From an uncultured virus (IMG/VR IMGVR_UViG_3300031787_000074) (lineage: Duplodnaviria > Heunggongvirae > Uroviricota > Caudoviricetes): a stretch of 64,000 nucleotides of DNA. Both the position numbers and the translations under genes were made by a program. Of this stretch, positions 16,056-63,682 are shown piece by piece. Below the pieces are notes generated by a model, which saw only the letters and a program-made list of their open reading frames with translations, did not search any database and was not told the origin of the DNA. The DNA lies in IMG/VR virus record IMGVR_UViG_3300031787_000074. The stretch is one strand, 5' to 3'. The stretch's first letter is position 1. Each line of letters begins with the position of its first letter.

Positions 16056-16889
16056 TCACATGAGTCTTATGTCTGATTGCTTGTCTAGTTCAGCTTGAAT
16101 CTTTTTCTTTCTAATGCTTACAGCTGCTGGCGTCACTCTAAGTTTTTTAGCTATAGCTTCATTAGACAACACAGGACTTCCGAACATTCCAAAAGCGCCT
16201 TCCATAATTATTTTATCAGTATCAGATGCTCCATAATAAACTAACTGCCTCCACCCATCCGCGCTGCTGGTATCCTTCATTAGCCTTACGCCTGGATCGT
16301 TGAAGTCTTCGCTTTCTGATCCGGCCATAGGCTTCAAAACTGTTCCTTCGCTAGAAGGCATCCTTAACTTTCTTACGTACTCAATTCTTTTTGGAGAAAG
16401 CCCTGTCTTGTCAGCCAGCTCACTTAAAGACGGGTGTCTTCCCAATTCTTCTTTTAATTCATCCTCTGCTTTGAAAAGACCTACGTAGTCTAACTGCACT
16501 TGTTCAGGAATACTTATTATCTGATTGCTTTGCAGAGTAAATCTTTTCAATCCTTGCAGCTGATTAAACACAAATGTTTTTAACTTAGTCTTTGACGGGT
16601 CGTACCTGTGAAGAGAGTCTATGACTATTTGTTTAGCCTTGCTCCCAACCATAGGGTTTGACGAGCTTCCAGCGTAAGTTTTAACGGCTGTATCTATTAC
16701 GGGTTTCAAAGCCTTTAAAACTCTGTCGTTGTTAGCTATGTCAGGATTTCTTTTCCAATCTTCATATATTTTATTATATTCAGGCTCAAGGCTTATAGTC
16801 GGCTGAGCGGGCGCAGTTCCAGGAGGCCTAGGTCCGCCTGTTGGCTGACTAGGGTTACCTACTCCAGGTATGTTGTACATCCCAGGCAT
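16056..16889 (-). CDS. RNA polymerase sigma-70 family factor (regions 2, 3, 4; SigB/F/FliA-like size)
   Basis: RYDPSKTKLKTFV (region 2), IISIP, ELGRHPSLSELADKTGLS (region 3), SNEAIAKKLRVTPAAVSIRKKK (region 4 HTH). Start moved to ATG 16889 (AGGA upstream). Confidence 0.85.
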   Translation of the reverse strand: MPGMYNIPGVGNPSQPTGGPRPPGTAPAQPTISLEPEYNKIYEDWKRNPDIANNDRVLKALKPVIDTAVKTYAGSSSNPMVGSKAKQIVIDSLHRYDPSKTKLKTFVFNQLQGLKRFTLQSNQIISIPEQVQLDYVGLFKAEDELKEELGRHPSLSELADKTGLSPKRIEYVRKLRMPSSEGTVLKPMAGSESEDFNDPGVRLMKDTSSADGWRQLVYYGASDTDKIIMEGAFGMFGSPVLSNEAIAKKLRVTPAAVSIRKKKIQAELDKQSDIRLM

Positions 16890-16900
16890 AGGTCCATCCT

Positions 16901-33672: not shown

Positions 33673-33748
33673 TTATTGACCCTCTGGGTAAATTTAGTTT
33701 ATAGCTTATTTGGTCATACTACCATACGTAACTTTATGCCTGATAGCT

Positions 33749-33787
33749 AAAAAAAACCCACCGCCAAGGCGCTAGCCTCAACGGTGG
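33749..33787 (-). terminator. Rho-independent terminator
   Basis: CCACCGTTGAGGC-TAGC-GCCTTGGCGGTGG stem followed by G and T8, just after the stop of 33794-34195. Confidence 0.85.
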
Positions 33788-50978: not shown

Positions 50979-53489
50979 TTATGCTAGCTCTTCGTCAGCA
51001 TCTTCCTTTTTCTTACGCCTATCTTCTTTTAACTTAGTTAAATAGTCATATAGCTTATATATACCGTAAGCACCGCCGCCAAGAGCGGCTGTTGCGCCCA
51101 AGCCTTGAACCCATGGAGCAACCTTGTGAGAAGTGGCAGTAATATTGCCAGGCTGCTCAAGAGCCTTGACTATACCCATGTACAAAGGCCCGATTGTCGC
51201 AGGGTTAACCCCCTGGTGAGGCTGAGCAGCTGACATGGCGTGAGCAGCGGCAGCCGTTGTCGGATCTTTTGTCAGAGCTTCGTAAATAAGCTTGGATTGT
51301 TCCCTGTCTGGAGTTGGATGGGCTTTCTGTACATCCTGCACTATCTGATGCATCCTGCTCATGGTGTCCACGACGCCCTGACGCCCAGATCCGTATCCTA
51401 GAAGCCTTTGCATAGCTGCGTTTTGCTTTGAGGCGGCTTCTGGAGTAGCGGCTGACTGCGCAAAAGCCGATTCTATGTCTTGTCTTTCTGCATCCGAAAG
51501 ACTGGCTTTGCGCTTGCTGATCAAATCAAACAGTTTTTCAGCTGTGGCTTTGCTCTGAAGCCTGTTGTACTTGGTATCTTTTGAGAAGAATCGCATGGGG
51601 TTGGCGTGAGCCAAGTATCCGCCGAGTGTAGCTTCTTCTTCTGGCTTGTCTGTGCTCTTTAGCTCTGCCTGCGGAGCTATGATGCCGGTAAGTTCTTCAA
51701 TCCAGTCTTTCTTGTACTTATCCTCAGGCGAAATATTCTTATCAAAGTCAGGCTGGGGATAAGTAGGCTTTCTATTCATGCCAGCTCGAGATTTAATCTC
51801 TACTGTGGCTATTCTTTTGATCAAGTCTTCAAGAGGGTTAACTCCTTCTACAGTTTGCTGCATAAAAGCTGAAGACGGGTCTTTAGCGTAATAGTTGTAG
51901 TGAGAATAATGCCCGCCTTCTGGCTGAGGAACTCCTTCTCTTGTCTCTAGCTTGGGCTGTCCGTGAGTTTGAACTCCCTGAGCGCGTAGAGCTTCAAGAA
52001 TATTCTTTCTCTGAGTGTTCAGCTCTGCGCTGCCTGGCTTGTTTACATCTTTGAACAAAGGTTCAAGAAAAGCGGAGGCAGCTTCTGGAGTTATGCCCCT
52101 AGCCTTAGCTAGTTCTTGTACAGCAAAGTCTTTCTTTGTTTCTATATCCCGGAATCTTTCGTCAAAATCTCTTCTACCTAGATAGTTGGTGCCAGGAATT
52201 CTCTCCCATTCACCTTTTGAGTTCTTTCTGTACTCTGATCCCTCTGTTCCTGGCCTTGGAGGAGGTCCTCCAACATTCATAAGCGGCCCAACCCAGTTTT
52301 CATTACGCGGGCTACGCATCCAGTTCATTATGTCTAAGGCTTTTGTGTTGCCATAAGCTATTGTCGGCAATAGGTTATTGGCTTCTCTGATATATGCAAG
52401 CTGGGCTGTAAGCTTGTCTGGTGCGCTGAACAAATCTTTTACAGCTTCTGATCCGGCTCCAAACCCTTTTGTTCTACCTGGGTTTAAATCCCTAAGTTTG
52501 AAATTAGGCATTACCTGTATGGCGTCTTGCTTAGCATCATGCTCTCTTTTCATTCTCTCTATGACAGCTTTCTCTTCTGGCGTAGCTCCGCCTCTTAGAG
52601 AGCTTGAAAGAATGCCAAACCATCCTGGTCTTTCATCTTTTGGTAGGTTTCCGCGCAACTCGGCTCTAGCAGAAGCCAAGTCTATCTGATTCTGAACGTC
52701 CTCAAGGGTCAGATTCCCTAGTTGCCTGAGTTTCGTACCGCCGTATATTCCAGCGGCACCAGCACCACCTAGCAGGGCAGATCCCAGCAAACCGGCAGTC
52801 GGAAATGAGGCTGTCGAGGGTCTTTTCTTTTTTTTAGCGGTCCTGCTGGGTGATTGCCCAATGTCGAGGTACTCTTTACCTTCTGCATCTTCAAATTGAA
52901 GATTTTCTAGCTCTTCACGATTTGCCTGATTAGCCAACAAATCATTTGCTTCTGCATTAAGTTGCCAGTTTTCAAGCTCATTAAGTCTATTTTTATTTAA
53001 ATCAGGCAGCTCCGCCTTTTTCTCTGACTCTCTAGTTACTTTCTTCCAGTTCTTTGCTGTTGGGTATCCTTTCTCTCCAGGCTTTGCTGGAGCTTCTCCA
53101 CGCTCTTTCTTGGCGTGAATGTTTGCCCAGAGGCCTGGTTTTCCGCCTGCTTCTTTCTGATTTTCTGTCTCAGCTCGCTTACTAAGAGACTGTAGTATCT
53201 CGGCTAGTTTTTCATGAGCGCTGCCACACTTCCATTTACGAAGAGACTTGTTTATTCGGCTATCTGGGTCGTTTGCCGTAGCTTTTGAAGTTAGCTTGGA
53301 CTTCATGCCTTTCATTCTGGCGCAGAAGCTATCTTTTCTTGGACCTCCTTCTGGCTGAGGCCTTTTTATGTCATGGCCTTGGGCTTTTAGGCTCTTACGG
53401 CCTTTCTCGTTCAGACCGCCTTCTGGGTTCTTGCCTTCAGAACGCTGCCAAGCTGGTGATGCGGACTTTTCTGTATCTTCAAGGCTCAT
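50979..53489 (-). CDS. Modular putative head-internal protein (small basic phage modules plus Gly-rich TM segments)
   Basis: 836 aa. AWQRSEGKNPEGGLN...SFCARM...RKWKC module (DUF6321-like, from recall), GLWANIHAKK module, two Gly-rich hydrophobic stretches. Confidence 0.6.
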   Translation of the reverse strand: MSLEDTEKSASPAWQRSEGKNPEGGLNEKGRKSLKAQGHDIKRPQPEGGPRKDSFCARMKGMKSKLTSKATANDPDSRINKSLRKWKCGSAHEKLAEILQSLSKRAETENQKEAGGKPGLWANIHAKKERGEAPAKPGEKGYPTAKNWKKVTRESEKKAELPDLNKNRLNELENWQLNAEANDLLANQANREELENLQFEDAEGKEYLDIGQSPSRTAKKKKRPSTASFPTAGLLGSALLGGAGAAGIYGGTKLRQLGNLTLEDVQNQIDLASARAELRGNLPKDERPGWFGILSSSLRGGATPEEKAVIERMKREHDAKQDAIQVMPNFKLRDLNPGRTKGFGAGSEAVKDLFSAPDKLTAQLAYIREANNLLPTIAYGNTKALDIMNWMRSPRNENWVGPLMNVGGPPPRPGTEGSEYRKNSKGEWERIPGTNYLGRRDFDERFRDIETKKDFAVQELAKARGITPEAASAFLEPLFKDVNKPGSAELNTQRKNILEALRAQGVQTHGQPKLETREGVPQPEGGHYSHYNYYAKDPSSAFMQQTVEGVNPLEDLIKRIATVEIKSRAGMNRKPTYPQPDFDKNISPEDKYKKDWIEELTGIIAPQAELKSTDKPEEEATLGGYLAHANPMRFFSKDTKYNRLQSKATAEKLFDLISKRKASLSDAERQDIESAFAQSAATPEAASKQNAAMQRLLGYGSGRQGVVDTMSRMHQIVQDVQKAHPTPDREQSKLIYEALTKDPTTAAAAHAMSAAQPHQGVNPATIGPLYMGIVKALEQPGNITATSHKVAPWVQGLGATAALGGGAYGIYKLYDYLTKLKEDRRKKKEDADEELA

Positions 53490-55390
53490 AGTACACCACC
53501 GTTATCAGTTGGCTTTATCACACCTTTTGGGTCGTATCCTTTTATCTTGCCTGTACTGCCAAAACCGACAGACTTAGCCAAAGAAGGCACGAACGAAGTA
53601 CCAGTCTCGTCAGAGATAGCTCCACTCCACGTGCCCTTCAATAAACCCTTTTGAAGATTTGACCCAAGCATTCTTGTCATCCAGTCTGGATCATACTGCA
53701 GGTTATCCAAACCTCGCAAGAAGTGAGGCTCTATTGGAGGAGGCTCATGGTGAGCTATCACTTCATTAATTCCGAAATCAGATAGTGTGTTTATAACTTT
53801 AGGAGTTACCCTGGTTCCTATCGTGTAGTGAAGGACAGGCCTTTCCAGGTACTTACCTTTTGCCGATTTTGTTGAAAGTTTCTGGTGTCCTGGCCTTGGC
53901 TGAAAAGTTTTCTCAAATAGATCGTAAGGAATAATGTCGTCAGGCATGAACTCTTCCAACTCGTCATTTAGCCTGACGTGGTTGATAAGCCCTCTAGATA
54001 GCATTTCAATATTTCTTCTATGCGCGCCCAGCCCAGCTTCTTTCATTGCGTCTCTAAAACTTAGAACAAACTGCCTTCTTCCTTCGCCTATTCCCTTGAA
54101 CTTTACAAATTCAGCAGGGTTTGGAAGGCCGTCACTAAGCACATCTCCAGCTTCTACCTCATCTCCTATTTTGAACTTCATCCCGGCTTCTGGATTTATG
54201 TAGTGAGGAACTTGTTTGATAAATATGAACTGCCCGCCGCTAGGAGCTTCGCGAACAGATTCTATTTTTCCATCTACTTGAGCATGAGTTGCCCAGTAAG
54301 GAGACTGCTTGGGACTTTGAATCAACTGATTTAGCTGCTTGAAGCCTGATATGGACTTACCGCCAGCAACTCCGCCGCTGTGTTTTGAGCTCAGGGTTCC
54401 TTGTGAGATTGGTTCGCTGAGTGCTTGCACCGCTGCAATGCCCACAAAGTCCCCAACAGCAGGTAAACCGCCACGCTCACGAACTCCAACATCTCTTGCA
54501 TACAAGCCTCCGTCAGGAGCTCCTGTGGCTACAGGACTTCTGACTACCATCTTGGTTATTCCACGGCTGAGAAGGTCTTTCATGACCTTTGGAGTTATCA
54601 GCGTGTTTTTCTTATAGCCGCCTACTGGAACAGACAGAAGTGATCCTTCGTTGTCAGAATCGTCAACATCAACAGGCATTCCTCTGCTGTCCGTATGCCC
54701 AGGATCTTCAGCGTCTCTGGCTGTGACTATGAGCCTGTGCCCTAACTGGTTTAGCTGTTTGGAAAAGAACCCAGAGTGTTGAACAGAGAACTTGGTATCA
54801 ACAACTCCCTTTCTGGCTCCGAAGCTTCCAGCAAAATACTCTGCTGGAGTTAGGCCTTTGGAGAAAGAGTTCAAAACTGGAATAGGAATAGGCCTGTCTC
54901 TGTGGTCTGTGTACAGTAAGTCTCCGCCTCTCAAAGACTTAAGGTTTGAAGGCTTGCCTCTTGAACCAGACAAAACCTGCAGAGCCAAAGGGCTGTGCTC
55001 AGCTTTGGACTCGTTAAGAATGGCGTCTTCTAGAGGCTTCTGATAACTAAGAACAGTTTTGACAATCTCGTCGTTCTTTTCTTTCTCTGGAAGGTTTCTT
55101 GCCTGTATGGCTTGTATTCTTTTCTTTATTTCTAAAGCAGCTTCCTTGCCTGATACTGACGTCCTTAGAGAATCAAGTCCGAAAGAGAATCCTCCGGTCT
55201 TGTAAGCTACATCTCTACCAACGTCAAATAACTTCTTAAGCACATCCCTGTAGCTGTCTGGATCCTTCTCAGCTATCTGCTGCATCACTTTTTGAACAGT
55301 CTTACCGTCAAGAATACGATTATAGTCTCGATAGCTCTGAGGAAGAGCTTCGTTAACTAGCAGCTGACCTACAGTAGTTCTGATAGACAT
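53486..55390 (-). CDS. rpoC: DNA-directed RNA polymerase beta' subunit, C-terminal half
   Basis: TTVGQ, SGSRG, SFSKGLTPAEYF..SFGARKGVVDT (bridge helix), GIAAVQALSEPISQGTLSSKHSGG (trigger loop), RNIEMLSR. Confidence 0.95.
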   Translation of the reverse strand: MSIRTTVGQLLVNEALPQSYRDYNRILDGKTVQKVMQQIAEKDPDSYRDVLKKLFDVGRDVAYKTGGFSFGLDSLRTSVSGKEAALEIKKRIQAIQARNLPEKEKNDEIVKTVLSYQKPLEDAILNESKAEHSPLALQVLSGSRGKPSNLKSLRGGDLLYTDHRDRPIPIPVLNSFSKGLTPAEYFAGSFGARKGVVDTKFSVQHSGFFSKQLNQLGHRLIVTARDAEDPGHTDSRGMPVDVDDSDNEGSLLSVPVGGYKKNTLITPKVMKDLLSRGITKMVVRSPVATGAPDGGLYARDVGVRERGGLPAVGDFVGIAAVQALSEPISQGTLSSKHSGGVAGGKSISGFKQLNQLIQSPKQSPYWATHAQVDGKIESVREAPSGGQFIFIKQVPHYINPEAGMKFKIGDEVEAGDVLSDGLPNPAEFVKFKGIGEGRRQFVLSFRDAMKEAGLGAHRRNIEMLSRGLINHVRLNDELEEFMPDDIIPYDLFEKTFQPRPGHQKLSTKSAKGKYLERPVLHYTIGTRVTPKVINTLSDFGINEVIAHHEPPPIEPHFLRGLDNLQYDPDWMTRMLGSNLQKGLLKGTWSGAISDETGTSFVPSLAKSVGFGSTGKIKGYDPKGVIKPTDNGGVL

Positions 55391-55614
55391 CAGATATTGA
55401 TCTCTTGGACATCGACGTCTGATTTAATGCCAAGTTTAGAGAGAATAGAATCAAACAAACCATTATCGCCTTTCTTGGCCTTGTACAAAGTGATTGTCCC
55501 AGGAGCTAGCTCAAGAACAACGATAATAGGCTGGCCAAAGCTATCGCGAATGACCAGCCTAGTAGCTTCTGCTTCTCCTGAAGATTGAAAACCGTTGTGA
55601 TATTCCAGCTTCAA
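55390..55614 (-). CDS. Small hypothetical protein coupled to the beta'(C) gene
   Basis: 74 aa; TTG start with GGGG SD; its stop overlaps the beta'(C) start (TGATG). Confidence 0.55.
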   Translation of the reverse strand: MKLEYHNGFQSSGEAEATRLVIRDSFGQPIIVVLELAPGTITLYKAKKGDNGLFDSILSKLGIKSDVDVQEINI

Positions 55615-55624
55615 AGCTTCCCCT

Positions 55625-56356
55625 TTATCGTTTGAATCCCATTGCGTTGATCAAGCAGCGAACAGCTTCGGTTTTGTCTTTCAAGCTTGCTTCCTTCTTT
55701 CCGCCGATTGGATCAATTGGCTTGATAGGAGGAATGCCGCCAACGCTGGCATCGCTTCCTTGTTCTTTTGAAGGAACAACCGGCTCTTGAGCGTCTTCGC
55801 CTTCTGGTGCGGGCTTATCGAGAATGTCGTAAGGAAGATTTAGGCCTAGGCTTTCGTACAGATTGATTAGCAACTTTTGTTGCCTTTCCATGTACTCAAG
55901 CATCTGCGCGGGATCTACCTTGCCGCCGCCTTTTGCCTTTGGCTTTGCTGCCCCGTCAGGAGAAGCTCCGCCGAGAGCTGCCTGCACGGCATCAGTAACC
56001 ATTTTCTTTATGTCATCAGGAGAAGGGGCTGGAGGAGCGCCGCCCATAGCCGCTGGATCCATAGGCGGAGCACCGCCCATCATAGCTGGGTCCATAGGAG
56101 GAGCTCCGCCGCCACCCATGGCAGCCATCATTGCTGGATCCATAGGAGGAGCACCGCCCATCATGGAAGGATCCATTGGTGGAGCGCCTGGAGGAGCAGC
56201 TCCCATCATGGCTGGGTCCATAGGAGGAGCTCCGCCGGCAGCGGCTTGGTCCATGGGAGGAGCGCCAGGAGGAGCGCCACCGCCAGGAGGAACAAAAGCG
56301 TTCTTCAGAGCCATAGCCCTTTTGACTTCTTGTAGCAAAATTGGATTGATAGGCAT
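55625..56356 (-). CDS. Pro/Gly/Met-rich repeat protein with K-x-A leader
   Basis: Start moved to ATG 56356 (GGAG). VKRAMALKNA leader, six APPMD repeats, C-terminal KKEAS. Confidence 0.65.
   Translation of the reverse strand: MPINPILLQEVKRAMALKNAFVPPGGGAPPGAPPMDQAAAGGAPPMDPAMMGAAPPGAPPMDPSMMGGAPPMDPAMMAAMGGGGAPPMDPAMMGGAPPMDPAAMGGAPPAPSPDDIKKMVTDAVQAALGGASPDGAAKPKAKGGGKVDPAQMLEYMERQQKLLINLYESLGLNLPYDILDKPAPEGEDAQEPVVPSKEQGSDASVGGIPPIKPIDPIGGKKEASLKDKTEAVRCLINAMGFKR
56030..56290 (-). repeat. Imperfect coding tandem repeat (GG)APPMDP(A/S)MM x6
   Basis: Six APPMD units in the translation; synonymous variation between units at DNA level. Confidence 0.85.
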
Positions 56357-56375
56357 TGATAGCTCCGTATTTAAA

Positions 56376-57341
56376 TTATCTAGCTCCCGCGCCGATCGGC
56401 CCAGAATGACCTTTTTCAAACTTATCAAGAAAATGACTCATAGCCCAGTTGTATTCGTCGCTAGACAAAGGCCGTCCGTACATTTGATTGAATACTTGCC
56501 GAGCTGGAGCCATAGGAACTCTGTTAGCGTAAGTCCTATTCCTTGGATCAGGAGCGCTGACGCCAGCATAGAAGTTAGGAATCATAAAATCGTTATCTTT
56601 GTCCTGAAACTTGTCAGGCATCTTAGAGTTTTTAAGCGCAGAAGATTCAAACATCTGCCTATGAGGGTGATAGCTCAAAGAAGCCCCGTAGCTGCCTTCA
56701 GGAAAGGGCTGAGGCTCAAGAGTTGTGCCTCCGGCATTGACCGTAAGCATCTGAGACAAGTTCTTATTTGAGCTAGGAGCTCTTCTGCTCTGGCTAAGCA
56801 TAGCCTTGTTGTTTGCTGAAGCCATCTCCTGAGGGCTCATGGTTGGAGGAACCATGTTTGGAACGCCTCTATTGCCTGCAGGGGCTACAGCCGAAGGAGG
56901 ACGGCTTGGAGTGGTTACAGGCCTACTGGGCGTTGGAGCAGATATAGCTCCAGGAAGACTAGCTGGACTTACAGCTGGGCTAGGCGCTGCTGGAGTCATT
57001 CCTGGAACTGTGGGAGATACTGACCCAGGAAGGGCAGATGGAGTAACTGGAGGAGTAGGAGCTGGAAGGCTGCTACTCCTCAGATGGTTTTGCAAAGAAG
57101 CCAAGGCGTCTTGGTTCATCCTGGCCATATGTGCCACTTCTGCGTCTTGCCTAGCCCTGTGCGCGGTAGCACTGGATTGGGCATTTCTAAGATGGCCAGC
57201 TATGGTGTTACCAGACACGTCGGTTAGAGGAGCCGTTGACGGAGTTGCCGGAGTGGCTGGAGTTCCTGAGTCTTGAGCCGCTTTAATCATGTGTTTGGCT
57301 AAAGCGGCCTTAACCATAATCAACTTAAATGTGTCAATCAC
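56376..57341 (-). CDS. Leader-bearing Pro/Ser/Thr-rich low-complexity protein
   Basis: 321 aa; GTG start with GGAG SD; FKLIMVKAALAKHMIKAA leader. Confidence 0.65.
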   Translation of the reverse strand: MIDTFKLIMVKAALAKHMIKAAQDSGTPATPATPSTAPLTDVSGNTIAGHLRNAQSSATAHRARQDAEVAHMARMNQDALASLQNHLRSSSLPAPTPPVTPSALPGSVSPTVPGMTPAAPSPAVSPASLPGAISAPTPSRPVTTPSRPPSAVAPAGNRGVPNMVPPTMSPQEMASANNKAMLSQSRRAPSSNKNLSQMLTVNAGGTTLEPQPFPEGSYGASLSYHPHRQMFESSALKNSKMPDKFQDKDNDFMIPNFYAGVSAPDPRNRTYANRVPMAPARQVFNQMYGRPLSSDEYNWAMSHFLDKFEKGHSGPIGAGAR

Positions 57342-57364
57342 GGCTTCTCCTTGTTCTTATAAAC

Positions 57365-58123
57365 TTATTTGTTTCTAGCTACGCCTGGCATGTCTACGTT
57401 TAGCTTCGATGGAGACGTGCTAAAAGGAGTTTGAACTGGAGGGAAGACAGAGGATGGTCTAGAGGATGCTATGTTTCTCTGCCCTTGCGCAGCCCTGCCT
57501 TGCTGATAGTTGGCGTATTCATTTGGCATTATACTTCTGCCACCTGCAGCCACGCCCACAGGATTTTGAAAAGCCTCTGGGTCAATCAAAGCTGTTCCCA
57601 TTCGGTCTAGCATGGGAGAACCGCTATTCTGCCCCAAAGAAGCTAAGTAGCCTAGAGGACTGGAGCTAGCGTGTTCCACGTGCTTCTTTATGGTCGCAGC
57701 GTTATCTATTGCTGACCTTCCAAAGTTAGCTGCGCCAGAAGCCGCGTTAGCCAGATAGCTTCCAGCATCTCTCATGCTGTTTCTTACATTCTCAGACCTA
57801 GTTAAGTCGTCTAGAGCTCTGGCCGTAGCGTAATCCGGAGCAGCCATGCTGGCTCCGGGTTTTAGACCTGTTACAAGCTGCCCTCTTCCTAGAGCCTGCT
57901 GTCTACGATTGGCTTGAATAGCCAAGTCGGCAGAAGTAGGACCAGAAGTAGGAGGCACTCTAGAAGAAGCTATAGCCTTGTCTACAGAAGTAGGAGCGGG
58001 CTTAGGCGCATTAACGCTAGCAGGGTTAGGTCCTTCTGGAGGAAAAACAGGAGGAGCGGCCTGTTTAATTAACTTAGCCGCTGCCTCTTTTACCTGCTGA
58101 ATAGCCTTGTAGTTGAAAGCCAT
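57365..58123 (-). CDS. Leader-bearing low-complexity protein (MAFNYKAI family)
   Basis: 252 aa; MAFNYKAIQQVKEAAAKLIKQAA. Confidence 0.7.
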   Translation of the reverse strand: MAFNYKAIQQVKEAAAKLIKQAAPPVFPPEGPNPASVNAPKPAPTSVDKAIASSRVPPTSGPTSADLAIQANRRQQALGRGQLVTGLKPGASMAAPDYATARALDDLTRSENVRNSMRDAGSYLANAASGAANFGRSAIDNAATIKKHVEHASSSPLGYLASLGQNSGSPMLDRMGTALIDPEAFQNPVGVAAGGRSIMPNEYANYQQGRAAQGQRNIASSRPSSVFPPVQTPFSTSPSKLNVDMPGVARNK

Positions 58124-58131
58124 CTTAGTAT
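58100..58131. repeat. 32-bp direct repeat copy 1 (gene start and leader)
   Basis: AATAGCCTTGTAGTTGAAAGCCATCTTAGTAT, identical to 58580-58611. Confidence 0.9.
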
Positions 58132-58165
58132 CCTCAGGGTTAGAGCTTTAAAAACTACTAAAAAA

Positions 58166-58603
58166 TTACTTAGATAACCTAGCTTTAGGTAATCCGTACA
58201 ACTCATCTTCTATATTTTTTGGCATGGGCAGCGCGAAATTGCTAGTTGGAACCGAATAAACTCCTCTTGGCTGGTAGTGCATGGCTCTGCGAGCCATGTC
58301 CAGGGTAGTAGGCGATGTTAGCATGTTCTCTACTTGAGCTCTATCTTTACCTATGGACACCGCGTCTTCTTTTTTCCCAGACTCCAAAGCTTTAATTTGC
58401 TTTTCTAAAAGTCTCTTAGCGAAGTCTTTTTGAATATCAATAAAGTTACTCATACCCTGGTCATTTGGATAATTTCTAGCGGCAAGACCGGCGTCTCCTG
58501 GAGCTCCTAGAGTAGATTTAAGTTTTACTGCTTCATTTTTATCTGCAGATAATTTAACTGCAGCTTTTTTAACTTGTTCAATAGCCTTGTAGTTGAAAGC
58601 CAT
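58166..58603 (-). CDS. Leader-bearing protein (MAFNYKAI family)
   Basis: 145 aa; MAFNYKAIEQVKKAAVKLSA. Confidence 0.7.
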   Translation of the reverse strand: MAFNYKAIEQVKKAAVKLSADKNEAVKLKSTLGAPGDAGLAARNYPNDQGMSNFIDIQKDFAKRLLEKQIKALESGKKEDAVSIGKDRAQVENMLTSPTTLDMARRAMHYQPRGVYSVPTSNFALPMPKNIEDELYGLPKARLSK

Positions 58604-58611
58604 CTTAGTAT
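58580..58611. repeat. 32-bp direct repeat copy 2
   Basis: Identical to 58100-58131. Confidence 0.9.
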
Positions 58612-58658
58612 TCCTAACTTTAAAACTGCGTTGGCTACGGAAGTAAAACGTATCTAGA

Positions 58659-58687
58659 AGTATAAACTGCTTTATAGCTTACAGCAA
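58659..58687 (-). promoter_or_regulatory. Candidate sigma70-type promoter
   Basis: TTGCTG-17 bp-TATACT upstream of 58603. Confidence 0.5.
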
Positions 58688-58726
58688 TCAGCCTTTTACT
58701 AACAATTTTTACCTTGGCTTTTACCA

Positions 58727-59197
58727 TTAATACCCGTAGTTAACTTTACCTGTGCCAAGACTTGGCAAACCTACGCCTTTTAGAAAAGCTTGCCTATGCA
58801 AATTGTTGAATGGAGTTTTTGACAATTCTGTCGGTAACGTTTGATAAGTAGGGTATGGAACAATTTGACGATAGTTTTCTGATCCAGGCATGGAGTATTG
58901 ATACGGGTTTACGGGTTTATTTAGCGCCTCTGTACTGGCTGCGTGTCGCGTTTCTGGAAGATTTCTAGAGCCTTCCAACATTTTTTGTTTTCTTTCTGTT
59001 TCAGAAAGCCACTTTATGCCAGGCTCAGGCGCTTTTTGATAAGTAGGAAGACCTATAGCGTCTCCTCCGTAACCTGGAGGAATAATTTGCGGTTTAGTCG
59101 CACTGCTGGCAGTAGGTTTTAAAGTAGCCGCAGATTCAGCAGCCCTTTTTGCCAGAGCTTCTTTAACCATTGAAATAGCTTTGTAATTAAAAGGCAT
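58727..59197 (-). CDS. Leader-bearing protein (MPFNYKAI family)
   Basis: 156 aa; MPFNYKAISMVKEALAKRAA. Confidence 0.7.
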   Translation of the reverse strand: MPFNYKAISMVKEALAKRAAESAATLKPTASSATKPQIIPPGYGGDAIGLPTYQKAPEPGIKWLSETERKQKMLEGSRNLPETRHAASTEALNKPVNPYQYSMPGSENYRQIVPYPTYQTLPTELSKTPFNNLHRQAFLKGVGLPSLGTGKVNYGY

Positions 59198-59200
59198 GGC

Positions 59201-59246
59201 TTCACCCTAGTTTACACCCTAGTTTTCACCCTAGTTTTCACCCTAG
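59201..59246. repeat. 12-bp tandem repeat (TTTTCACCCTAG), about 4 copies
   Basis: ttcaccctag tttacaccctag ttttcaccctag ttttcaccctag fills the space between the RNAP stop and the next start. Confidence 0.9.
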
Positions 59247-62200
59247 CTGTTTAGAATTACCACTTTCTGATCAGGCCCAATTTCTCCTGACTTATAAGCC
59301 CTGATTGCGTCGGCTTTTGTGGCAAAATACCGTTCTGGTTTATTAGACACGAAGGCCGTTGCCTGATAAAGACCGCCTTGATACTCGTTCTTTGGCAGCT
59401 GGTGAACTTTAAACGTTTTAGTTGATAGCAAATTCTTGCTAGGCAACATCTTTTCAAGAGCGTCTTTGACAGCTCCATCAGACACAGGAACGTGGTAGTT
59501 CATGGTGTCGCCATCAAAGTCGGCACCAAATCCCGTAACCACAGCTGGGCATAACTGCATTGTTTCGTTGTCTACAAGTATTGGCTTGAAGGCCATAACG
59601 CCATACCTGTGAAGAACTGGAGCTCTGTTGATAATCACAGGCCTGTCGTTCATCTCTTGCTGCATAGCTGTCAGAGCTAACTTGTCTTTGTTCTGCACAA
59701 GTTCTGCTGCCCTAATCGGAGAAACTCCTTGTCTGGCCAGTCTTCTTACAATAAATGGTTTATATATTTCCCAAGCTTTGTTGATAGGAATGCCTACTTG
59801 ATCTAAATCCAGATTGGCGTTTGGAGAGATAACGCCTCTGCCAACAACGTCTACTGTCGTGCTTAGCAACTTGCGCTGCATAACAGAGAACTTAGGATTA
59901 TCGCCAAACACGTATTTGAGAACGCCTTTGACTCCGCGCTCTTGGTTCTTGGGACTTATTGGATCACCAAGTCCCGTGACTGCTTTGAATGACCTATATA
60001 GAGCTAAGCGCTCATCTCCAACTTCGTTGGATATTCTTCTGGTTTCTTTCAAAGCCTGGTTAGCTTCAAAAGCTTCCTTATACAGGTAATTAGGATCAGC
60101 CACCAAAGGTCTGTCGCCAGATCCCATAACAGCCACAGGGCGGAATATTGGTGGAAGGACTGGAATCTTGTCCATCATCCAATCTTTTGGATGCATCTTC
60201 AGCCTTTGGGTGTGTTTCAGAATCGCCCAGCGCTTTAGAGCTGCATCTTTCGATGACTTCTTCGAGTTTCTCCATTCTGTTTCTGCTCTCTTTGTTGCCT
60301 CGTTGATGTCAATTCTTTCCAAAGACTTCTTTATAGCCTCTGGACCGGACATTTCATTGAACGTCTCTTTTCCAGAAAGTATGGCGTTGAACCTGTTTTG
60401 AGTCAGGCCGAGTATTCTGCGAATAGGCTCTTCCATGACAGGATTGGGCAAAGGCTCAGCTAACTTTATGTAGCTCCATCTATTTCCTCCATGTCCTCCT
60501 GTTGTTGATTCGTCAAACAATCCTCCCTTTATGGGCTTCAAGCCTTCCTTCCAGTCCACAGTTTCAGGAGAAGTTATTTCCCTTCCTGCAGCTAATTGGT
60601 CTATATCCTTGTTGGTCAAGGCCATGATCTGAATTCTTGGCCCAGTTCTTATTGGGTTTATGCCTGCAGACCTGAGTTGTTCAAAGAACTTATGGTATAC
60701 GAGAGGAATTCTTGGCTCAGGAGGAGTTCTACCGGACATGAATGCTGCCCAGTAGTCTTGATTTTTTTGTCCTCTAATAGCTCCGGCATCGGTAAGAACA
60801 TCCAAAGCTCCATGGGAAAGAAGGGCGTTGTTGTCAGCAAGGCTTACGCGCTTGCTTCCCATTGGACCGCCTTTAGCTGGAGATTCCTCAGAGGTGTAAG
60901 AACCCAAACCACGACCAGAGCCTTTGCTCTCAGCCATGTGGTGCAACTTCATGAAGAAGCGATTTCCTGTGAATACGTCCCTTATTTTTGTGCTGTCTAT
61001 TGGATCCAGTATGTCTTCCCTGTCAGACATGTTGTGCTTGGATAGTTCTTTTTTGGCGAACTCTATCATGTCTTCTATGTCAGAAAAGTCTTTTACGGCG
61101 TATCTCTTACCGTGCTTTTCAGCTATTTTTCCCAGAACCGCTTCTACCATCTGACCAGGATTTGTTCTGGAAATAATGCCCAAGGGGTTTACCAGAACCT
61201 CAAAAGGTCTTCCGTCGCTATCTACAGGCATGTGGTTGTCTGGAACTATCTCAGAAATTACTCCCTTGTCTCCATACCTTCCAGAAAGCTTGTCGCCAAC
61301 CTGCATTTGGGAGTAGCTCTTTACTGTTACGACTACGCCTTTCCTGGTTTTCTCTACGTCTGTAACCACTCCTTTGTCGTGATGATCCCAAGTTACAGTG
61401 CTGTCTGAAAAAGTAGGAGCCTTGCCTCTGGTTATTTGATTGTGCGCCAGCTCTTTCTGCTTAACCTGAAGAATAAGAGGAGTATCGGCATTTACTATTG
61501 AGCCCTTCTTGATTACTCCGTCCTCATCCATGTTGTCCAGGATGGCTTTGTCGTAAGTGCCTGGGAACATGGATATAAAAGTTTTCTTTCCGTATTTGGC
61601 GTTATCCTCAAACTCCACGTCGTTTTGATACATGTGTTCTGAGGAAAGACGCTTGGCAGCTGCCTCAGATATAACTATGGCGTCTTCAAAGTTCTGACCT
61701 TTATAGGGAATGTAGGCAGTACGCATGTTCAGACCCAAAGCCGTAGCGCCTTTGGCGTCTGTAAAGTTAGACCTGGCAATAAGAGTATTCTTCTTTACCA
61801 TGTCTCCAGGCATAACTACAGGCGTGTTATGAAGATAAGTCTTTCTGTTGTAAGGAAGGTTGTCATGTATTTCTTTAACATGCACCTTGCCATCAGATCC
61901 CTTTATGTGAATCTCTTCTGGAGTAACCTTAACAACTTGTCCTTCTACGTCGGAATGTACCGCGCCCATGTACTTGCCGTATCTTTCCTCATACGACTCG
62001 TCATCAGGACCTGGAACACCTGACTGAACAAACGGGGATTCGGCGTTTGCAATAGGCAAAGCCTGTGTAAGCATTCTCGCGCCCATCATCACGCGCTGGC
62101 CTTTGATGGTGGATTTGAGAGGAATCATGTTTACCAGAGGATTGAACGAGTCTTCCATGTGTGGAAGAACGTATTCAACCTGGTTCTTTGGAACATATTT

Positions 62201-63679
62201 GATTTTGCCGCTAACCAAAGCAGCCACTACGTTTGAATTCTTGTTTTCAAGCTCTTTGGGGAAAGCTATTACAGAGTCAGCAATATCCTGAGGAGTTTTC
62301 CATACAGGTTTATTTCCATTCTTTACGTCAAGAAACTTGGCATAGACCTTTCCATCCTTACCTTTCATGGAAGATTGAGCCAAACGGCTATCAACACCTA
62401 CCTTTAGAGATTCAGGAGTGAGTAGAGGATCGACATAACCAAAGTGAGAAGGCTGAACCGACCTGGCTTCGTCTGGAACAGCGTCCAGAGAAGGAATACC
62501 GCCTTCGCCAAGACGACTCATTCTGGTCAGCTGGCCAAGAATCTCAGCGTTGTTCACTTCTTCAGAAGGCTGTCCAAGTCCAGAACTTGTAATTGCAGCA
62601 TTCAAATGCTTGCCAAGGAAGTTAGTTCCCAGAGGACTGAGATTATTTTTGAATGTGGCTTTCCACAGTAAAGGCCTCATGACCTTGTAGGCTGAGCGCA
62701 TCTTCTCAGAAAACAGATCCTCAGGACCCATGATCATCTGATAGGCCATGGCATCGCGGTCGTCTGGATCTGCTTCTCTCTTGTTTATGGCCACGATCTT
62801 CTTTGTGGCATCAATAATGGCATCTACTGACAAGTTTTTATACGGTTTGCCTAGTGTTCTTGACGTTACAACACCATCTAAATGCATGTTCTCAAAGAAG
62901 TTACGAAGCTTTTGATACTTGCTTTCCTTGTCTCCTTCCTGATCAGCCTTCCTAAGAGTTCTTTGGATTAGCTTTTCCAGAACCTGCGGGTCGTTTTGCC
63001 TGGCGTTTACTTCGTACAGCTCGTTTCCCCAAGAGTCTCTAAGCTGTTTGTCTGTTGCACCCATGGCTTTGAGCAGGGGAAACAGAGGCATGGACGCTTG
63101 GCCCATGGAAACTTTGAATACGCCGCGAGCTGGATCTAGAGAATATCTGTGAGAAACACCTTTACCAGGAAGTACGTTAACGTGAGATTCTATTTCACCG
63201 TTCTGCTTTTCTCTCGTATATATCCCTGGGCGCAATCTGGCTTGGTTGGCAAGTGTGTATTCAACACCATTAAGTACGAAAGTGCCGCCATTTGTCATCT
63301 TGGGAATACGAGCCATGGTTATGGCTTTTTCATCAACGATGTTTCCCTGCGTGTCCTGAAGCTGCCATATGCCCTGAAGCCTTCTTTCAAGGCTTTCTTT
63401 TCTAAGAATGGCTTTCTTTCGTTCTTTTATGGAAGGAACTGGGCTATCTAGATAGCTAGCGCTGACTAGCTTTAGCTTATACCTATTGTTTTCAAATACA
63501 GGAATTTCTTTCGTAGCGTTTAAAACACCGTCGTATATGGAGTTACGAGTCTTATCTATGTCAGAAAAAGACCGCATCTCTTCCTGAGGTTTATTTAAAA
63601 TAGGCGCGGCCAGATTGCCAAGAACTCCTGCAGGCTTGTTTGGTCCCGCAGGAGTTCCACCGTCTAGGACAGAAGCCAT
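59243..63679 (-). CDS. rpoBC: DNA-directed RNA polymerase beta-beta'(N-terminal) fusion
   Basis: Beta motifs IPKMTNGGTFVLNG, TPESLKVG, GQNFEDAI, GDKLSGRYGDKGVIS, NPLGIISRTNPGQ, MKLHH. Then beta' motifs PVLPPIFRP, NRAPVLHR and catalytic GADFDGD (59507-59527). Confidence 0.97.
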   Translation of the reverse strand: MASVLDGGTPAGPNKPAGVLGNLAAPILNKPQEEMRSFSDIDKTRNSIYDGVLNATKEIPVFENNRYKLKLVSASYLDSPVPSIKERKKAILRKESLERRLQGIWQLQDTQGNIVDEKAITMARIPKMTNGGTFVLNGVEYTLANQARLRPGIYTREKQNGEIESHVNVLPGKGVSHRYSLDPARGVFKVSMGQASMPLFPLLKAMGATDKQLRDSWGNELYEVNARQNDPQVLEKLIQRTLRKADQEGDKESKYQKLRNFFENMHLDGVVTSRTLGKPYKNLSVDAIIDATKKIVAINKREADPDDRDAMAYQMIMGPEDLFSEKMRSAYKVMRPLLWKATFKNNLSPLGTNFLGKHLNAAITSSGLGQPSEEVNNAEILGQLTRMSRLGEGGIPSLDAVPDEARSVQPSHFGYVDPLLTPESLKVGVDSRLAQSSMKGKDGKVYAKFLDVKNGNKPVWKTPQDIADSVIAFPKELENKNSNVVAALVSGKIKYVPKNQVEYVLPHMEDSFNPLVNMIPLKSTIKGQRVMMGARMLTQALPIANAESPFVQSGVPGPDDESYEERYGKYMGAVHSDVEGQVVKVTPEEIHIKGSDGKVHVKEIHDNLPYNRKTYLHNTPVVMPGDMVKKNTLIARSNFTDAKGATALGLNMRTAYIPYKGQNFEDAIVISEAAAKRLSSEHMYQNDVEFEDNAKYGKKTFISMFPGTYDKAILDNMDEDGVIKKGSIVNADTPLILQVKQKELAHNQITRGKAPTFSDSTVTWDHHDKGVVTDVEKTRKGVVVTVKSYSQMQVGDKLSGRYGDKGVISEIVPDNHMPVDSDGRPFEVLVNPLGIISRTNPGQMVEAVLGKIAEKHGKRYAVKDFSDIEDMIEFAKKELSKHNMSDREDILDPIDSTKIRDVFTGNRFFMKLHHMAESKGSGRGLGSYTSEESPAKGGPMGSKRVSLADNNALLSHGALDVLTDAGAIRGQKNQDYWAAFMSGRTPPEPRIPLVYHKFFEQLRSAGINPIRTGPRIQIMALTNKDIDQLAAGREITSPETVDWKEGLKPIKGGLFDESTTGGHGGNRWSYIKLAEPLPNPVMEEPIRRILGLTQNRFNAILSGKETFNEMSGPEAIKKSLERIDINEATKRAETEWRNSKKSSKDAALKRWAILKHTQRLKMHPKDWMMDKIPVLPPIFRPVAVMGSGDRPLVADPNYLYKEAFEANQALKETRRISNEVGDERLALYRSFKAVTGLGDPISPKNQERGVKGVLKYVFGDNPKFSVMQRKLLSTTVDVVGRGVISPNANLDLDQVGIPINKAWEIYKPFIVRRLARQGVSPIRAAELVQNKDKLALTAMQQEMNDRPVIINRAPVLHRYGVMAFKPILVDNETMQLCPAVVTGFGADFDGDTMNYHVPVSDGAVKDALEKMLPSKNLLSTKTFKVHQLPKNEYQGGLYQATAFVSNKPERYFATKADAIRAYKSGEIGPDQKVVILNS

Positions 63680-63682
63680 GGC

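Follow-up and report, generated by a model that had tools for sequence, protein, structure and literature searches.

The phage DNA analysed here encodes an RNA polymerase (RNAP) in which the boundaries between the large subunits have moved: beta is fused to the N-terminal half of beta' in one open reading frame (ORF), P0001, and the remainder of beta' is encoded by a second ORF, P0002. The best reading of the two sequences is that together they specify a complete catalytic core, that of a compact multisubunit RNAP of the bacterial type with shifted chain boundaries, and we predict that this core is active. To our knowledge, no bacterial-like multisubunit RNAP has a simpler layout: there are two chains, neither alpha nor omega is matched, and the zinc sites are missing. 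Positions refer to the window, which is the whole 64,000-nucleotide stretch of DNA that was analysed, and the features discussed below are collected in Table 1.

Table 1. Features of the RNAP locus and its candidate partner genes in the window.
Feature	Position	Strand	Size or residues	Basis and remarks
Fused gene P0001 (chain 1)	59243..63679	-	1478 aa	ORF list and translation, Pfam, PDB alignments
Beta part of P0001	60656-63679	-	residues ~1-1008	
Joint in P0001	60584-60655	-	residues ~1009-1032 (~24 aa)	
Beta' N-terminal half in P0001	59246-60583	-	residues ~1033-1478	
Catalytic Mg-binding motif ADFDGD, beta' double-psi barrel	59507..59524	-	P0001 residues 1386-1391	Translation
Four tandem 12-nt units, TAGGGTGAAAAC-like	59198..59245	-		Sequence
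Six small spacer ORFs between the RNAP genes	55390..59197	-		ORF list
Spacer ORF	58727-59197	-	156 aa	
Spacer ORF	58166-58603	-	145 aa	
Spacer ORF	57365-58123	-	252 aa	
Spacer ORF	56376-57341	-	321 aa	
Spacer ORF	55625-56428	-	267 aa	
Spacer ORF	55390-55614	-	74 aa	
Beta' C-terminal half, P0002 (chain 2)	53486..55390	-	634 aa	Begins MSIRTTVGQ; ORF list, Pfam, PDB alignment
P0273	50979..53489	-	836 aa	ATG overlaps the beta'-C stop (ATGA)
SNF2-family helicase	48499..49989	-	496 aa	Pfam SNF2-rel_dom and Helicase_C
Sigma-70-family protein	16056..16925	-	289 aa	phmmer, Pfam, PDB, Foldseek; amid baseplate genes

Pfam profiles placed domains of both large subunits in P0001: Rpb2_3 (residues 373-437) and Rpb2_6 (582-929, E 8.8e-53) are followed in the same chain by Rpb1_2 (1338-1409, E 4.1e-25), with Rpb1_1 (1123-1214) matching below the cut-off. 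In alignments to solved structures, residues 91-1055 of the 1104 residues of a cyanobacterial beta matched P0001 residues 113-1008, and Thermus aquaticus beta' residues 24-51 and 454-829 matched P0001 residues 1033-1061 and 1109-1475. Because the beta alignment stops at residue 1007-1008 and the beta' alignment begins at 1033, we placed the joint in the short segment between them. An earlier note on this DNA had described beta as running into beta' near 60620-60670, and the two do lie in one ORF, with the joint mapped to the interval in Table 1. The C-terminus of beta is thus covalently connected to the N-terminus of beta', which is what defines an rpoB-rpoC fusion, but the fused chain does not contain the entire beta'. 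It ends in ...VVILNS*, about 85 residues beyond the catalytic ADFDGD, at a point corresponding approximately to residue 831 of 1524 in T. aquaticus beta'. The ADFDGD motif aligns with the NADFDGD of solved beta' chains, and all six columns were invariant among 37 aligned fused relatives. Upstream, a Shine-Dalgarno-like GAGGAA lies 8 nt 5' of the P0001 ATG. At the other end of the gene, the first TAG of the 12-nt repeat array is the fused-gene stop, the other three TAGs share its frame, and so does the ATG with which the next ORF begins after the array; a pattern search of the window found the unit elsewhere only as three scattered sites with two mismatches each.

The second chain begins 3.85 kb downstream of P0001. 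It opens with an ATG that shares bases with the stop codon of the preceding ORF (TGATG), and this start lies 3-4 residues ahead of a TTVGQ motif (P0002 residues 5-9). P0002 contains Rpb1_5 (179-361, E 2.8e-18), and its residues 4-490 aligned to residues 664-1185 of the 1317 residues of a mycobacterial beta' (E 1.5e-34). The note's claim that the fusion stops and beta' resumes 3.85 kb on at MSIRTTVGQ was therefore upheld, with P0001 and P0002 both confirmed as ORFs. It had also placed the phage cut before the TT(P/V)GR motif, unlike that of cyanobacteria, and the alignment agrees: since residue 12 of cyanobacterial rpoC2 aligns to P0002 residue 24, phage beta' is broken some 12 residues earlier than its cyanobacterial counterpart, preceding TTVGQ and not following a TTPGR-type motif. 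The catalytic elements of a bacterial-type two-barrel core (Rpb2 domain 6, the NADFDGD-type Mg site and Rpb1 domain 5) are present across the two chains, which total 2112 residues, whereas beta and beta' of E. coli together have 2749. With best PDB E-values for P0001 of 4.6e-68 (beta) and 3e-48 (beta'/gamma), the description of a distinct two-chain viral RNAP that aligns readily with the bacterial enzyme also holds.

The earlier note had recognised that an assembly artefact could mimic such a layout. Contigs from three DNA runs of three studies, which are possibly sources of the window DNA, cover 53300-63800 with zero mismatches and zero indels, and in each run a single contig spans 58582-63800. 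The stretch is present in 19 runs from 11 studies. Conservation provides stronger support than these matching contigs. All 120 fused relatives listed end within 0-13 residues of the P0001 end and none matches P0002; conversely, the starts of all 150 beta'-C representatives lie no more than 7 residues from that of P0002, and none matches P0001. PF00562 and PF00623 occur in each of the 120 fused matches listed, and PF04998 (Rpb1_5) in none. Clustered at 50% identity, the clade forms at least 150 groups, with contigs of up to 239 kb; a related-locus search with a single protein returned four close relatives, and the wider sampling comes from separate homologue searches. With these results, the layout is confirmed as real and as common to a large, barely described group of phages.

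The group has cultured members. Gp206 (1525 aa) and gp216 (606 aa) of Salmonella phage Arash have the same chain boundaries as the window proteins, and Vibrio phages D69, D148 and D181 have the same fused-and-split layout, at 25-31% identity to the window. In both Arash and D69, Pfam assigns Rpb2_3/Rpb2_6 and Rpb1_1/Rpb1_2 to one chain and Rpb1_5 to the other. The Arash record labels both RNAP proteins 'subunit beta', and the D69 proteins are each a 'hypothetical protein'. The accessible text of the Arash paper names the two 'beta' and 'beta'', with no mention there of a fusion or a cut (PMC10585845). A description of the layout was not found in the literature searched, from which subscription journals were excluded and which included accessible parts of PMC7481178, PMC10585845, PMC7824862, PMC7598289 and PMC13282480. 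Because the annotations read only 'beta', 'beta'' or hypothetical, the sequences are public and the architecture is undescribed in that literature. Such labels conceal the architecture, and trees built from concatenated "beta" and "beta'" proteins could be led astray by them. Two other phage enzymes differ from this pattern. Rhizobium phage RHph_Y65 has a homologue by tblastn, but its beta' is undivided (1127 aa). Cobetia phage Carin-5, likewise found to be homologous by tblastn, has a sigma factor and a pair of RNAP genes (1083 aa and 927 aa), each annotated 'subunit beta', which from their matches we take to be beta' and beta, respectively. Since both enzymes differ, the fused-and-split layout is specific to the lineage of Arash, D69 and the window.

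The earlier note had found no alpha gene in the window, and this absence extends to omega and to the nearest record, which is 189.7 kb long and 91% complete. Profiles for alpha (PF01000, PF01193) and omega (PF01192) had no match at E<=1 in that record and matched 14 of 14 control genomes, although a small alpha- or omega-like gene may sit in the missing part or escape Pfam by divergence. The phage itself, which is uncultured, comes from freshwater and has a genome of about 190 kb. Rpb2_6 has a single match in the nearest record, and no further RNAP families were found among the 117 plus 43 additional ORFs scanned; the enzyme is the only recognisable RNAP of the phage in this 91%-complete record. 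Both chains are also depleted of cysteine. From the genome frequency, 19.8 cysteines would be expected in the 1478 residues of P0001 and 8.5 in the 634 of P0002, versus one and zero observed; the SNF2 helicase has none in 496 residues (6.6 expected), and three of the six spacer ORFs lack cysteine. Beta' normally has two zinc sites of four cysteines each. Neither site is present here, as the beta' part of chain 1 contains only Cys1377, so that the fused chain is not strictly cysteine-free, and chain 2 contains no cysteine.

The six ORFs of the spacer belong to no Pfam or PHROG family (zero of six in each case), and none was matched by 55 Arash proteins used as queries. Likewise, seven Arash spacer proteins (gp207c-gp211c, gp213 and gp214c) had no match in the nearest record. 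The spacer differs in content among relatives as well as in size, which is 0.64 kb in D69, 3.07 kb in L006, 3.85 kb here and 4.8 kb in Arash. On the other side of P0002, P0273 has DUF6321 at its N-terminus and two hydrophobic glycine-rich segments, and occupies the place of the long beta'-C C-terminal tail carried by most relatives; such tails, hypervariable in sequence, are found on 110 of 150 beta'-C representatives. P0273 may be a detached counterpart of these tails, although there was no significant match by BLASTP against three long relatives or between the G001 ORFs and the 110 tails.

Two further genes may encode partners of the enzyme, and both accompany the RNAP in relatives as well. 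The SNF2-family helicase is a homologue of Arash gp217 (phmmer E 3.2e-73) and shares 40% identity with the helicase portion of P0220, a protein of a relative that combines beta'-C, NUDIX and SNF2 in a single chain. In Arash, as here, the helicase gene is downstream of beta'-C and a sigma-like gene (gp10) lies amid baseplate genes. The Arash helicase gene adjoins beta'-C with no ORF between them, whereas in the window the distance is 3.5 kb and two ORFs (836 and 310 aa) intervene. We consider the helicase a likely RNAP partner. The window sigma-70-family protein, called as 274 aa (16056-16880) in the database, is a homologue of Arash gp10 (phmmer E 1.5e-16). Sigma70_r3 scored 28.3 bits against a cut-off of 25.3, and PDB sigma 8x6g_H matched with E 2.5e-5 over residues 50-181. 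An AF2 model (pLDDT 78.4) searched against the PDB with Foldseek gave 104 matches at E<=0.001 with about 240-300 columns aligned, and all 48 rows listed (ranks 1-50, two left out) were sigma factors (best E 2.8e-7). The assignment is supported by 51 relatives. Pfam sigma region 2 (PF04542) had no match in the nearest record, and only region 3 of the protein was above the cut-off; because Pfam misses region 2, we regard the protein as a divergent sigma-70 member. Homologues of the Arash sigma gp196 and of the D69 sigma were not detectable here. As a candidate promoter we examined the 11-mer TTAGCTATYRG, which has seven copies in the record, all in gene sense and five directly after a hairpin and T-run. 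Its spacing to -10-like hexamers is unlike that of sigma-70 promoters and the loci of the four close relatives contain only one further copy, and we do not put it forward as the promoter of this enzyme. In one metatranscriptome run, 0.07 of sampled words were found, with three contigs of 40-255 nt (55912-56166, 57133-57368 and 59201-59240); this is too little to prove transcription, and DNA carry-over could account for it.

What might such an enzyme do? We think it reasonably probable that it is an alpha- and omega-less, cysteine-poor, sigma-dependent two-chain RNAP that is packed in the virion and injected. Chain 1 supplies beta, the joint and beta' to shortly past the Mg-binding loop, and chain 2 the remaining beta' from the bridge helix and trigger loop onwards; the cut falls in a loop immediately ahead of the TTVGQ motif. 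The covalent beta-beta'N link could substitute for cellular alpha in holding beta and beta' to each other. Promoter recognition would come from the sigma-70-family protein that the phage itself encodes, the SNF2 helicase may assist the enzyme in the way RapA assists bacterial RNAP, and the enzyme would enter the cell with the DNA. Packaging appears probable because of the Arash homology, the position within the virion gene block, and the near absence of cysteine together with the loss of both zinc sites. Twelve window ORFs are homologous to Arash virion-module proteins, mostly detected by mass spectrometry and including the major capsid protein, and are collinear with Arash gp216-gp236 and gp10-gp14. 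Spectra from Arash virions numbered 3516 for Gp206, the highest of all, 1210 for Gp216, 1148 for helicase Gp217 and 467 for sigma Gp10 (PMC10585845). We infer packaging by analogy with this single proteome, which is that of a relative about 25-30% identical. An injected enzyme could begin transcription without host RNAP. An extended form of this model is possible, but we propose it only tentatively. In it, the enzyme would be a self-contained injected kit with a zinc-free, almost cysteine-free core; the fusion would replace alpha, and the head would also contain the phage sigma and an SNF2 motor. The kit would travel down the tail together with the DNA, one polymerase would serve the whole programme with no host RNAP at any time, and the beta'-C tails, whose place is taken here by the separate 836-aa ORF resembling head cargo, would act as adaptors for packaging or ejection or as additional effectors that are injected.

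Alternatively, the same two-chain enzyme could be made during infection for middle and late genes and not be a virion enzyme, so that its position among structural genes and its detection in Arash particles would reflect high late expression and carry-over. The Arash authors themselves caution that abundant enzymes in purified particles may be contamination, and ribonucleotide reductases, which are metabolic enzymes, were likewise detected (PMC10585845). The RNAP genes also lie on the late-gene strand and share the operon-like packing of late genes. Nevertheless, Gp206 exceeded even the capsid protein in detection, with the sigma and helicase alongside (PMC10585845), and depletion of cysteine with loss of both zinc sites is hard to square with a purely cytoplasmic enzyme. 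A sole RNAP made late would moreover leave early genes dependent on host RNAP, and we regard this alternative as unlikely, if still a serious competitor. It is considerably harder to accept that the phage core takes alpha, and perhaps omega, from the host to form a phage-host hybrid. Alignment to bacterial RNAP does span most of beta and beta', and all cellular RNAPs have alpha-like assembly subunits (PMC7598289). Conserved alpha contacts are doubtful because the enzyme is only about 27-30% identical to any bacterial one, and the hosts of the clade are distant from one another: Salmonella and probably Vibrio for cultured members, and freshwater hosts here. A virion enzyme would need host alpha packaged as well, and phiKZ/AR9-type RNAPs function without alpha (PMC7598289).

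Could the layout itself be misleading? In principle, a mobile insertion could have split beta', with a split intein or RNA splicing restoring a single beta-beta' chain. Mobile elements are common in this clade: insertions of more than 100 residues occur in 61 of 150 beta'-C representatives, intein or LAGLIDADG domains in many fused relatives, a homing endonuclease within the fused gene of D148 and D181, and an intein-C-like leader of about 40 residues ahead of a serine in beta in some relatives. At the break, however, there is no space for intein halves: in chain 1 the beta' alignment continues up to residue 1476 of 1478, and in chain 2 it opens at residue 2-4. Every relative examined retains the break whatever separates the two genes (0.64-4.8 kb), and the spacer here consists of six ordinary ORFs on the same strand. 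Gp206 and Gp216 are separate entries in the Arash table, each with its own peptide counts (PMC10585845), and we give a fractured gene very little weight. We give even less to an error of assembly or sequencing or to a pseudogene in decay. The metagenomic origin of the window and its one-base difference from the nearest record, in a T-run at 32135-32140, would be compatible with error, but the contigs of three studies and the recurrence across runs described above argue otherwise, as do invariant catalytic residues and the same boundaries in hundreds of diverged relatives and four cultured phage genomes.

We compared the predicted two-chain, probably packaged enzyme with known systems. A clade of metagenomic Caudovirales whose multisubunit RNAP branches deeply, termed mReC (Weinheimer and Aylward 2020, PMC7481178), resembles the window in consisting of large tailed phages, uncultured and drawn from aquatic and other environments, with beta and beta' alignable to cellular homologues and RNAP genes amid structural genes. 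Unlike the window, beta and beta' are handled there as two subunits, and some mReC contigs have two beta genes versus one in the nearest record (PMC7481178). In the accessible text of that paper, 'fused' or 'fusion' is used for crAssphage only and 'split' never, and six supplements do not contain 'fused'. The contig-name numbers of our four close relatives are absent from its supplements, whose tables give no protein lengths (PMC7481178). It is plausible that the window phage belongs to this published lineage.

In cyanobacteria the boundary between gamma and beta' falls beyond the catalytic double-psi barrel, close to where the phage chain is cut, and gamma residues 186-549 align to P0001 1110-1467 and rpoC2 residues 12-352 to P0002 24-346. 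The cyanobacterial cut follows the motif, whereas that of the phage precedes it; the roughly 50 gamma residues before the cyanobacterial cut have no counterpart in the phage chain, and cyanobacterial beta is a separate chain, unlike the phage fusion. Plastids have the cyanobacterial cut, and both cyanobacterial and plastid enzymes retain alpha and omega. Bacterial rpoB-rpoC fusions join the beta C-terminus to the beta' N-terminus in one polypeptide, as in the phage. In Helicobacter and Wolbachia, the fused beta' is whole and alpha and omega are still used; the phage chain instead ends soon after the active-site loop.

In phiKZ/AR9-type virion and non-virion RNAPs, beta' is cut after the double-psi barrel, which coincides with the cyanobacterial cut (PMC7598289). 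The phage cut lies in a known hot spot, and only its combination with the beta-beta'N fusion is unusual. These enzymes too are multisubunit phage RNAPs without alpha or omega, one form of which is virion-packaged, and an SNF2-type helicase is linked to their beta'-C gene (PMC7598289, PMC7824862). A standing question about them is how the large subunits stay together without alpha (PMC7598289). The two-chain layout, still well alignable to solved bacterial enzymes, makes this question testable; the covalent beta-beta'N link may be the simple answer, and experiments are feasible because the clade has cultured members in Salmonella and Vibrio. Unlike the window enzyme, phiKZ/AR9-type RNAPs have four to five highly diverged chains, with beta split too and beta and beta' unfused, and occur as two enzyme sets without a sigma factor (PMC7598289, PMC7824862). 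The window has a single set with a sigma-70-family candidate partner, and its two chains align well to bacterial RNAP.

The phage RNAP is encoded by two ORFs, P0001 (chain 1) and P0002 (chain 2). The earlier note had claimed that beta runs directly into beta' in one chain and that the rest of beta' restarts 3.85 kb downstream, and both claims were borne out. By Pfam, P0001 carries domains of both subunits, Rpb2_3 and Rpb2_6 of beta and Rpb1_1 and Rpb1_2 of beta', and P0002 carries Rpb1_5. Residues 91-1055 of the 1104-residue cyanobacterial beta align to P0001 residues 113-1008, and residues 24-51 and 454-829 of Thermus aquaticus beta' align to residues 1033-1061 and 1109-1475, the latter alignment containing the catalytic ADFDGD (residues 1386-1391). 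The alignment ends place the beta/beta' joint at P0001 residues ~1009-1032 (window 60584-60655) and the end of chain 1 ~85 residues past the active-site loop. P0002 aligns to the C-terminal half of beta', with residues 664-1185 of 1317 in the mycobacterial protein paired to its residues 4-490. A GAGGAA site precedes the P0001 ATG, and that of P0002 overlaps the preceding ORF's stop (TGATG). We conclude that a complete catalytic core is encoded in two chains with conserved boundaries, and we are nearly certain of the architecture itself, a beta-beta'N fusion plus a separate beta'-C.

Features of the RNAP genes and their putative partners in the window
Feature	Coordinates	Strand	Details
P0001, fused RNAP ORF	59243-63679	-	single 1478-aa ORF
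P0002, beta'-C ORF	53486-55390	-	634 aa
Spacer between P0001 and P0002		-	3.85 kb; six small ORFs, same strand
Sigma-like ORF, homologue of Arash gp10	16056-16925		phmmer E 1.5e-16
SNF2 helicase, homologue of Arash gp217	48499-49989		phmmer E 3.2e-73

The earlier note had allowed that the fusion or split could be an assembly artefact. All of the best 120 matches to P0001 residues 700-1478 (4 of them N-terminally short pieces) contained PF00562 and PF00623 and none contained PF04998; by BLASTP, all 120 ended 0-13 residues from the end of P0001, and none matched P0002. A search of 1.84 billion representatives with P0002, without length limits, gave 4139 matches at E<=0.001, and the best 150 of these (45-56% identical) all started within 7 residues of the P0002 start, with no match to P0001. 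Window 55000-61000 was present completely in 19 runs from 11 studies. Contigs of three runs, one per study, showed zero differing letters and zero indels across 53300-63800, and one contig in each spanned 58582-63800. All three carry a flag as possible sources of the DNA and so count for little as independent support; conservation is the stronger evidence against an artefact. With identical boundaries in every relative compared, we consider the chance of an artefact or a pseudogene negligible. A fractured gene rejoined by splicing is also highly improbable, because the beta' alignment reaches residue 1476 of 1478 in chain 1 and begins at residue 2-4 in chain 2, which leaves no room for split-intein halves at the break.

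The RNAP genes of relatives are intein-rich, with apparent split-intein C-halves in some. Proteins of 578-587 aa in some relatives (P0377, P0379, P0388, P0390, P0393, P0399, P0411, P0418, P0424, P0429 and P0432; contigs 30-239 kb) begin with a ~40-aa leader, MKV..V.PY.G...VYDITV...VVSN, after which SKR... aligns to Ser941-Lys-Arg of the window's beta (P0001 residue ~941; window ~60857). The leader resembles the C-terminal half of a split intein, and the gene would then be a fractured beta with its beta-beta'N joint intact. A second class of relatives starts exactly at a Met aligned to P0001 Met817.

A C-terminal tail longer than 100 aa was found on 110 of the 150 beta'-C representatives (P0123-P0272; median 484, maximum 1156), and in only 35 of the 150 does the chain finish within 30 aa, like the window's beta'-C. 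The tails are hypervariable: the 110 fall into 50 similarity groups, and DUF5661, DUF4269 or NUDIX plus SNF2 is present in a few. The window's 836-aa ORF with DUF6321 (50979-53489) starts on the beta'-C stop (ATGA) and has no similarity to any of the relatives' beta'-C tails. Four tandem 12-nt units, TAGGGTGAAAAC, lie at 59198-59245 (-), two exact and then with 1 and 2 mismatches; they occupy the gap from the fused-gene stop to the ATG that opens the next ORF in frame, and give four consecutive in-frame TAGs. The unit terminates in a Shine-Dalgarno-like AGGGTGA. The array is absent from L006, a 76%-identical metagenomic relative, where the next ORF begins 2 nt past the stop. In all three DNA runs compared, contig ends fall at 58100-58131 and 58582-58609; the intervening 508-nt piece (58102-58609) covers a 145-aa spacer ORF (58166-58603) and has lower depth (83 vs ~149, 10.4 vs ~16-20 and 13.5 vs ~16), which suggests a variant or a presence/absence polymorphism of this gene among co-occurring strains.

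Cultured relatives were sought by tblastn against 50,697 phage records. Matches were found in 58 records, 4 of them covering at least 80% of P0001: Salmonella phage Arash (98% covered, 29.9% identity) and Vibrio phages D69, D181 and D148 (94%, ~30.7%). Arash gp206 (1525 aa) has the same domain set as P0001 (Rpb2_3, Rpb2_6, Rpb1_1, Rpb1_2), and gp216 (606 aa), 4.8 kb downstream, has Rpb1_5 like P0002. The same gene pair lies only 0.64 kb apart in D69 and 3.07 kb apart in the 76%-identical metagenomic relative. The cut is fixed and the spacer is fluid among relatives.

The nearest record to the window, G001 (189,675 bp, 91% complete), differs from the window only in the length of one T-run and in a single nearby base substitution. 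The run at window 32135-32140 is T5, vs T6 in G001, and the substitution ~25 nt on is the sole other difference in a 500-nt block; the T-run difference shortens a tail-module ORF, homologous to Arash structural protein gp234, from 272 aa in G001 to 224 aa in the window (32068-32742). It is either a homopolymer sequencing error or a strain difference. Six-frame family searches of G001 gave a single Rpb2_6 locus and no match to alpha (PF01000, PF01193), omega (PF01192) or sigma region 2 (PF04542), and Pfam detected no further polymerase or RNAP subunit in 117 ORFs from beyond the window or in another 43 within it. For alpha, these searches extend the earlier claim on the window to the 91%-complete record, at the level of family matches.

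Outside the window, G001 (loci L014-L017) carries an intein-containing ribonucleotide reductase gene with matches to ATP-cone and class II insertion domains. It also has genes for ThyX, a dCTP deaminase, two very long collagen-repeat proteins, numerous glycosyltransferases and methyltransferases, and a family A DNA polymerase joined to a uracil-DNA-glycosylase-like domain. Of the 208 ORFs called, 195 lie on one strand. A subtilisin-family protease gene (Peptidase_S8, E 4.6e-63; window 11987-13075, -) lies between baseplate-like genes, among them Baseplate_J at 13483-15135. TTAGCTATYRG occurs seven times in the 189.7-kb record, always gene-sense (30082, 71267, 109628, 110314, 111672, 112164 and 157064; one copy at window 33740-33750, -), with a GC-rich hairpin and T-run directly before 5 of the 7 and only 1 further copy in the loci of four 76% relatives. 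This element could serve as a terminator-promoter unit or as a processing site. TTTTAGCTAT is ~19-fold enriched in intergenic gaps.

Two candidate partners of the core were found. The homologue of Arash gp10, which is annotated as a sigma factor, exceeds the Pfam cut-off for Sigma70_r3, matched a solved sigma structure at E 2.5e-5 and has 51 relatives. When its AF2 model (pLDDT 78.4) was compared with the PDB by Foldseek, each of the 48 matches listed was a sigma factor (E down to 2.8e-7), which makes this sigma-fold protein a candidate partner of the RNAP core. The SNF2 helicase is linked to beta'-C by gene order, Arash gp217 being directly 3' of gp216, and by one fusion, P0220, in which beta'-C, a NUDIX domain and a helicase 40% identical to the window's form a single chain. 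A similar association of SNF2 with the beta'-C gene has been noted in phiKZ-like phages and compared with RapA (PMC7824862).

Cysteine is depleted in the two RNAP chains and the helicase: P0001 has 1 in 1478 residues (19.8 expected at the record's frequency of 0.0134), P0002 0 in 634 (8.5 expected) and the helicase 0 in 496 (6.6 expected). Bacterial beta' has two zinc sites with four cysteines each, and neither is possible in the phage RNAP because its chains hold one cysteine together. Such depletion fits, though does not prove, a protein that has to pass through particle and tail. Cysteine-free ORFs make up 16 of the 126 record ORFs of at least 150 aa, and 9 of the 16 are found in ~20 kb of sequence surrounding the RNAP genes. 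They are beta'-C, the helicase, three ORFs of the spacer, a pair immediately upstream of the fused gene, a 176-aa ORF (47960-48490) and a 493-aa ORF (40751-42232).

When 55 Arash proteins were queried, 14 record ORFs matched. Homologues of the Arash virion module are 12 window ORFs, 10 annotated structural or capsid, collinear with Arash gp216, gp217, gp218, gp222, gp226 (the major capsid protein), gp233-236, then gp10, gp13 and gp14. In the particle data of the Arash paper, Gp206 had 3516 spectra, the highest of any protein, with 1210 for Gp216, 1148 for helicase Gp217 and 467 for sigma Gp10 (PMC10585845). According to its authors, these proteins may act in early transcription once injected, or they may be abundant enzymes carried over with the particles (PMC10585845). 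Carry-over would suit a non-virion enzyme expressed late, which we consider unlikely given the rank of Gp206, the company of sigma and helicase in the particles (PMC10585845) and the cysteine depletion. From homology with Arash, gene context and cysteine depletion together, we think that the RNAP is probably a virion enzyme. The covalent beta-beta'N link would replace alpha in holding the core together; that the core borrows host alpha instead seems improbable. The sigma-like protein would supply promoter specificity, the helicase would act on the transcription complex, and the set would be packaged and injected, so that early transcription could proceed without host RNAP. With no second RNAP in the record, this one enzyme may be used throughout infection. 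Taken as a whole, a packaged and injected two-chain core lacking alpha and omega, with sigma and helicase, is our favored and reasonably probable proposal.

The earlier note had left open whether characterised phages already document this architecture. The sequences of Arash, D69, D148 and D181 are public, but we found no text describing the layout in the literature searched, subscription journals lying outside it. The Arash paper, in its text consulted, names the proteins beta and beta' (PMC10585845). The searched text on mReC, the metagenomic Caudovirales clade with deep-branching multisubunit RNAP, uses "fused" or "fusion" solely for crAssphage and lacks "split", and its six supplements lack "fused" (PMC7481178). 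Jumbo-phage reviews, in the portions covered, describe only phiKZ-type RNAP architectures (including PMC7598289, PMC7824862).

The fused-and-split layout is not shared by other phages that carry bacterial-like RNAP genes. Unlike the window phage, Rhizobium phage RHph_Y65 has an undivided beta' (1127 aa). In Cobetia phage Carin-5 a sigma gene precedes two RNAP genes, of 1083 and 927 aa; each bears the annotation "subunit beta", and we take them to be beta' and beta. The alignments agreed with the earlier note that cyanobacterial beta' is cut after its TT(P/V)GR motif, whereas the phage cut precedes the corresponding TTVGQ. Residue 12 of rpoC2 aligns to P0002 residue 24, so the phage cut lies ~12 residues upstream; gamma residue 549 of 624 aligns to P0001 residue 1468 of 1478, and the ~50 gamma residues (35 in Mycobacterium) immediately before the motif are without counterpart in the phage chains. 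In phiKZ/AR9-type virion and non-virion RNAPs, beta' is described as cut after the DPBB, coinciding with the cyanobacterial cut (PMC7598289). Since all three cuts fall in the same part of beta', this is a recurrent place for division, and the unusual feature of the phage enzyme is the combination of a beta' cut with a beta-beta'N fusion.
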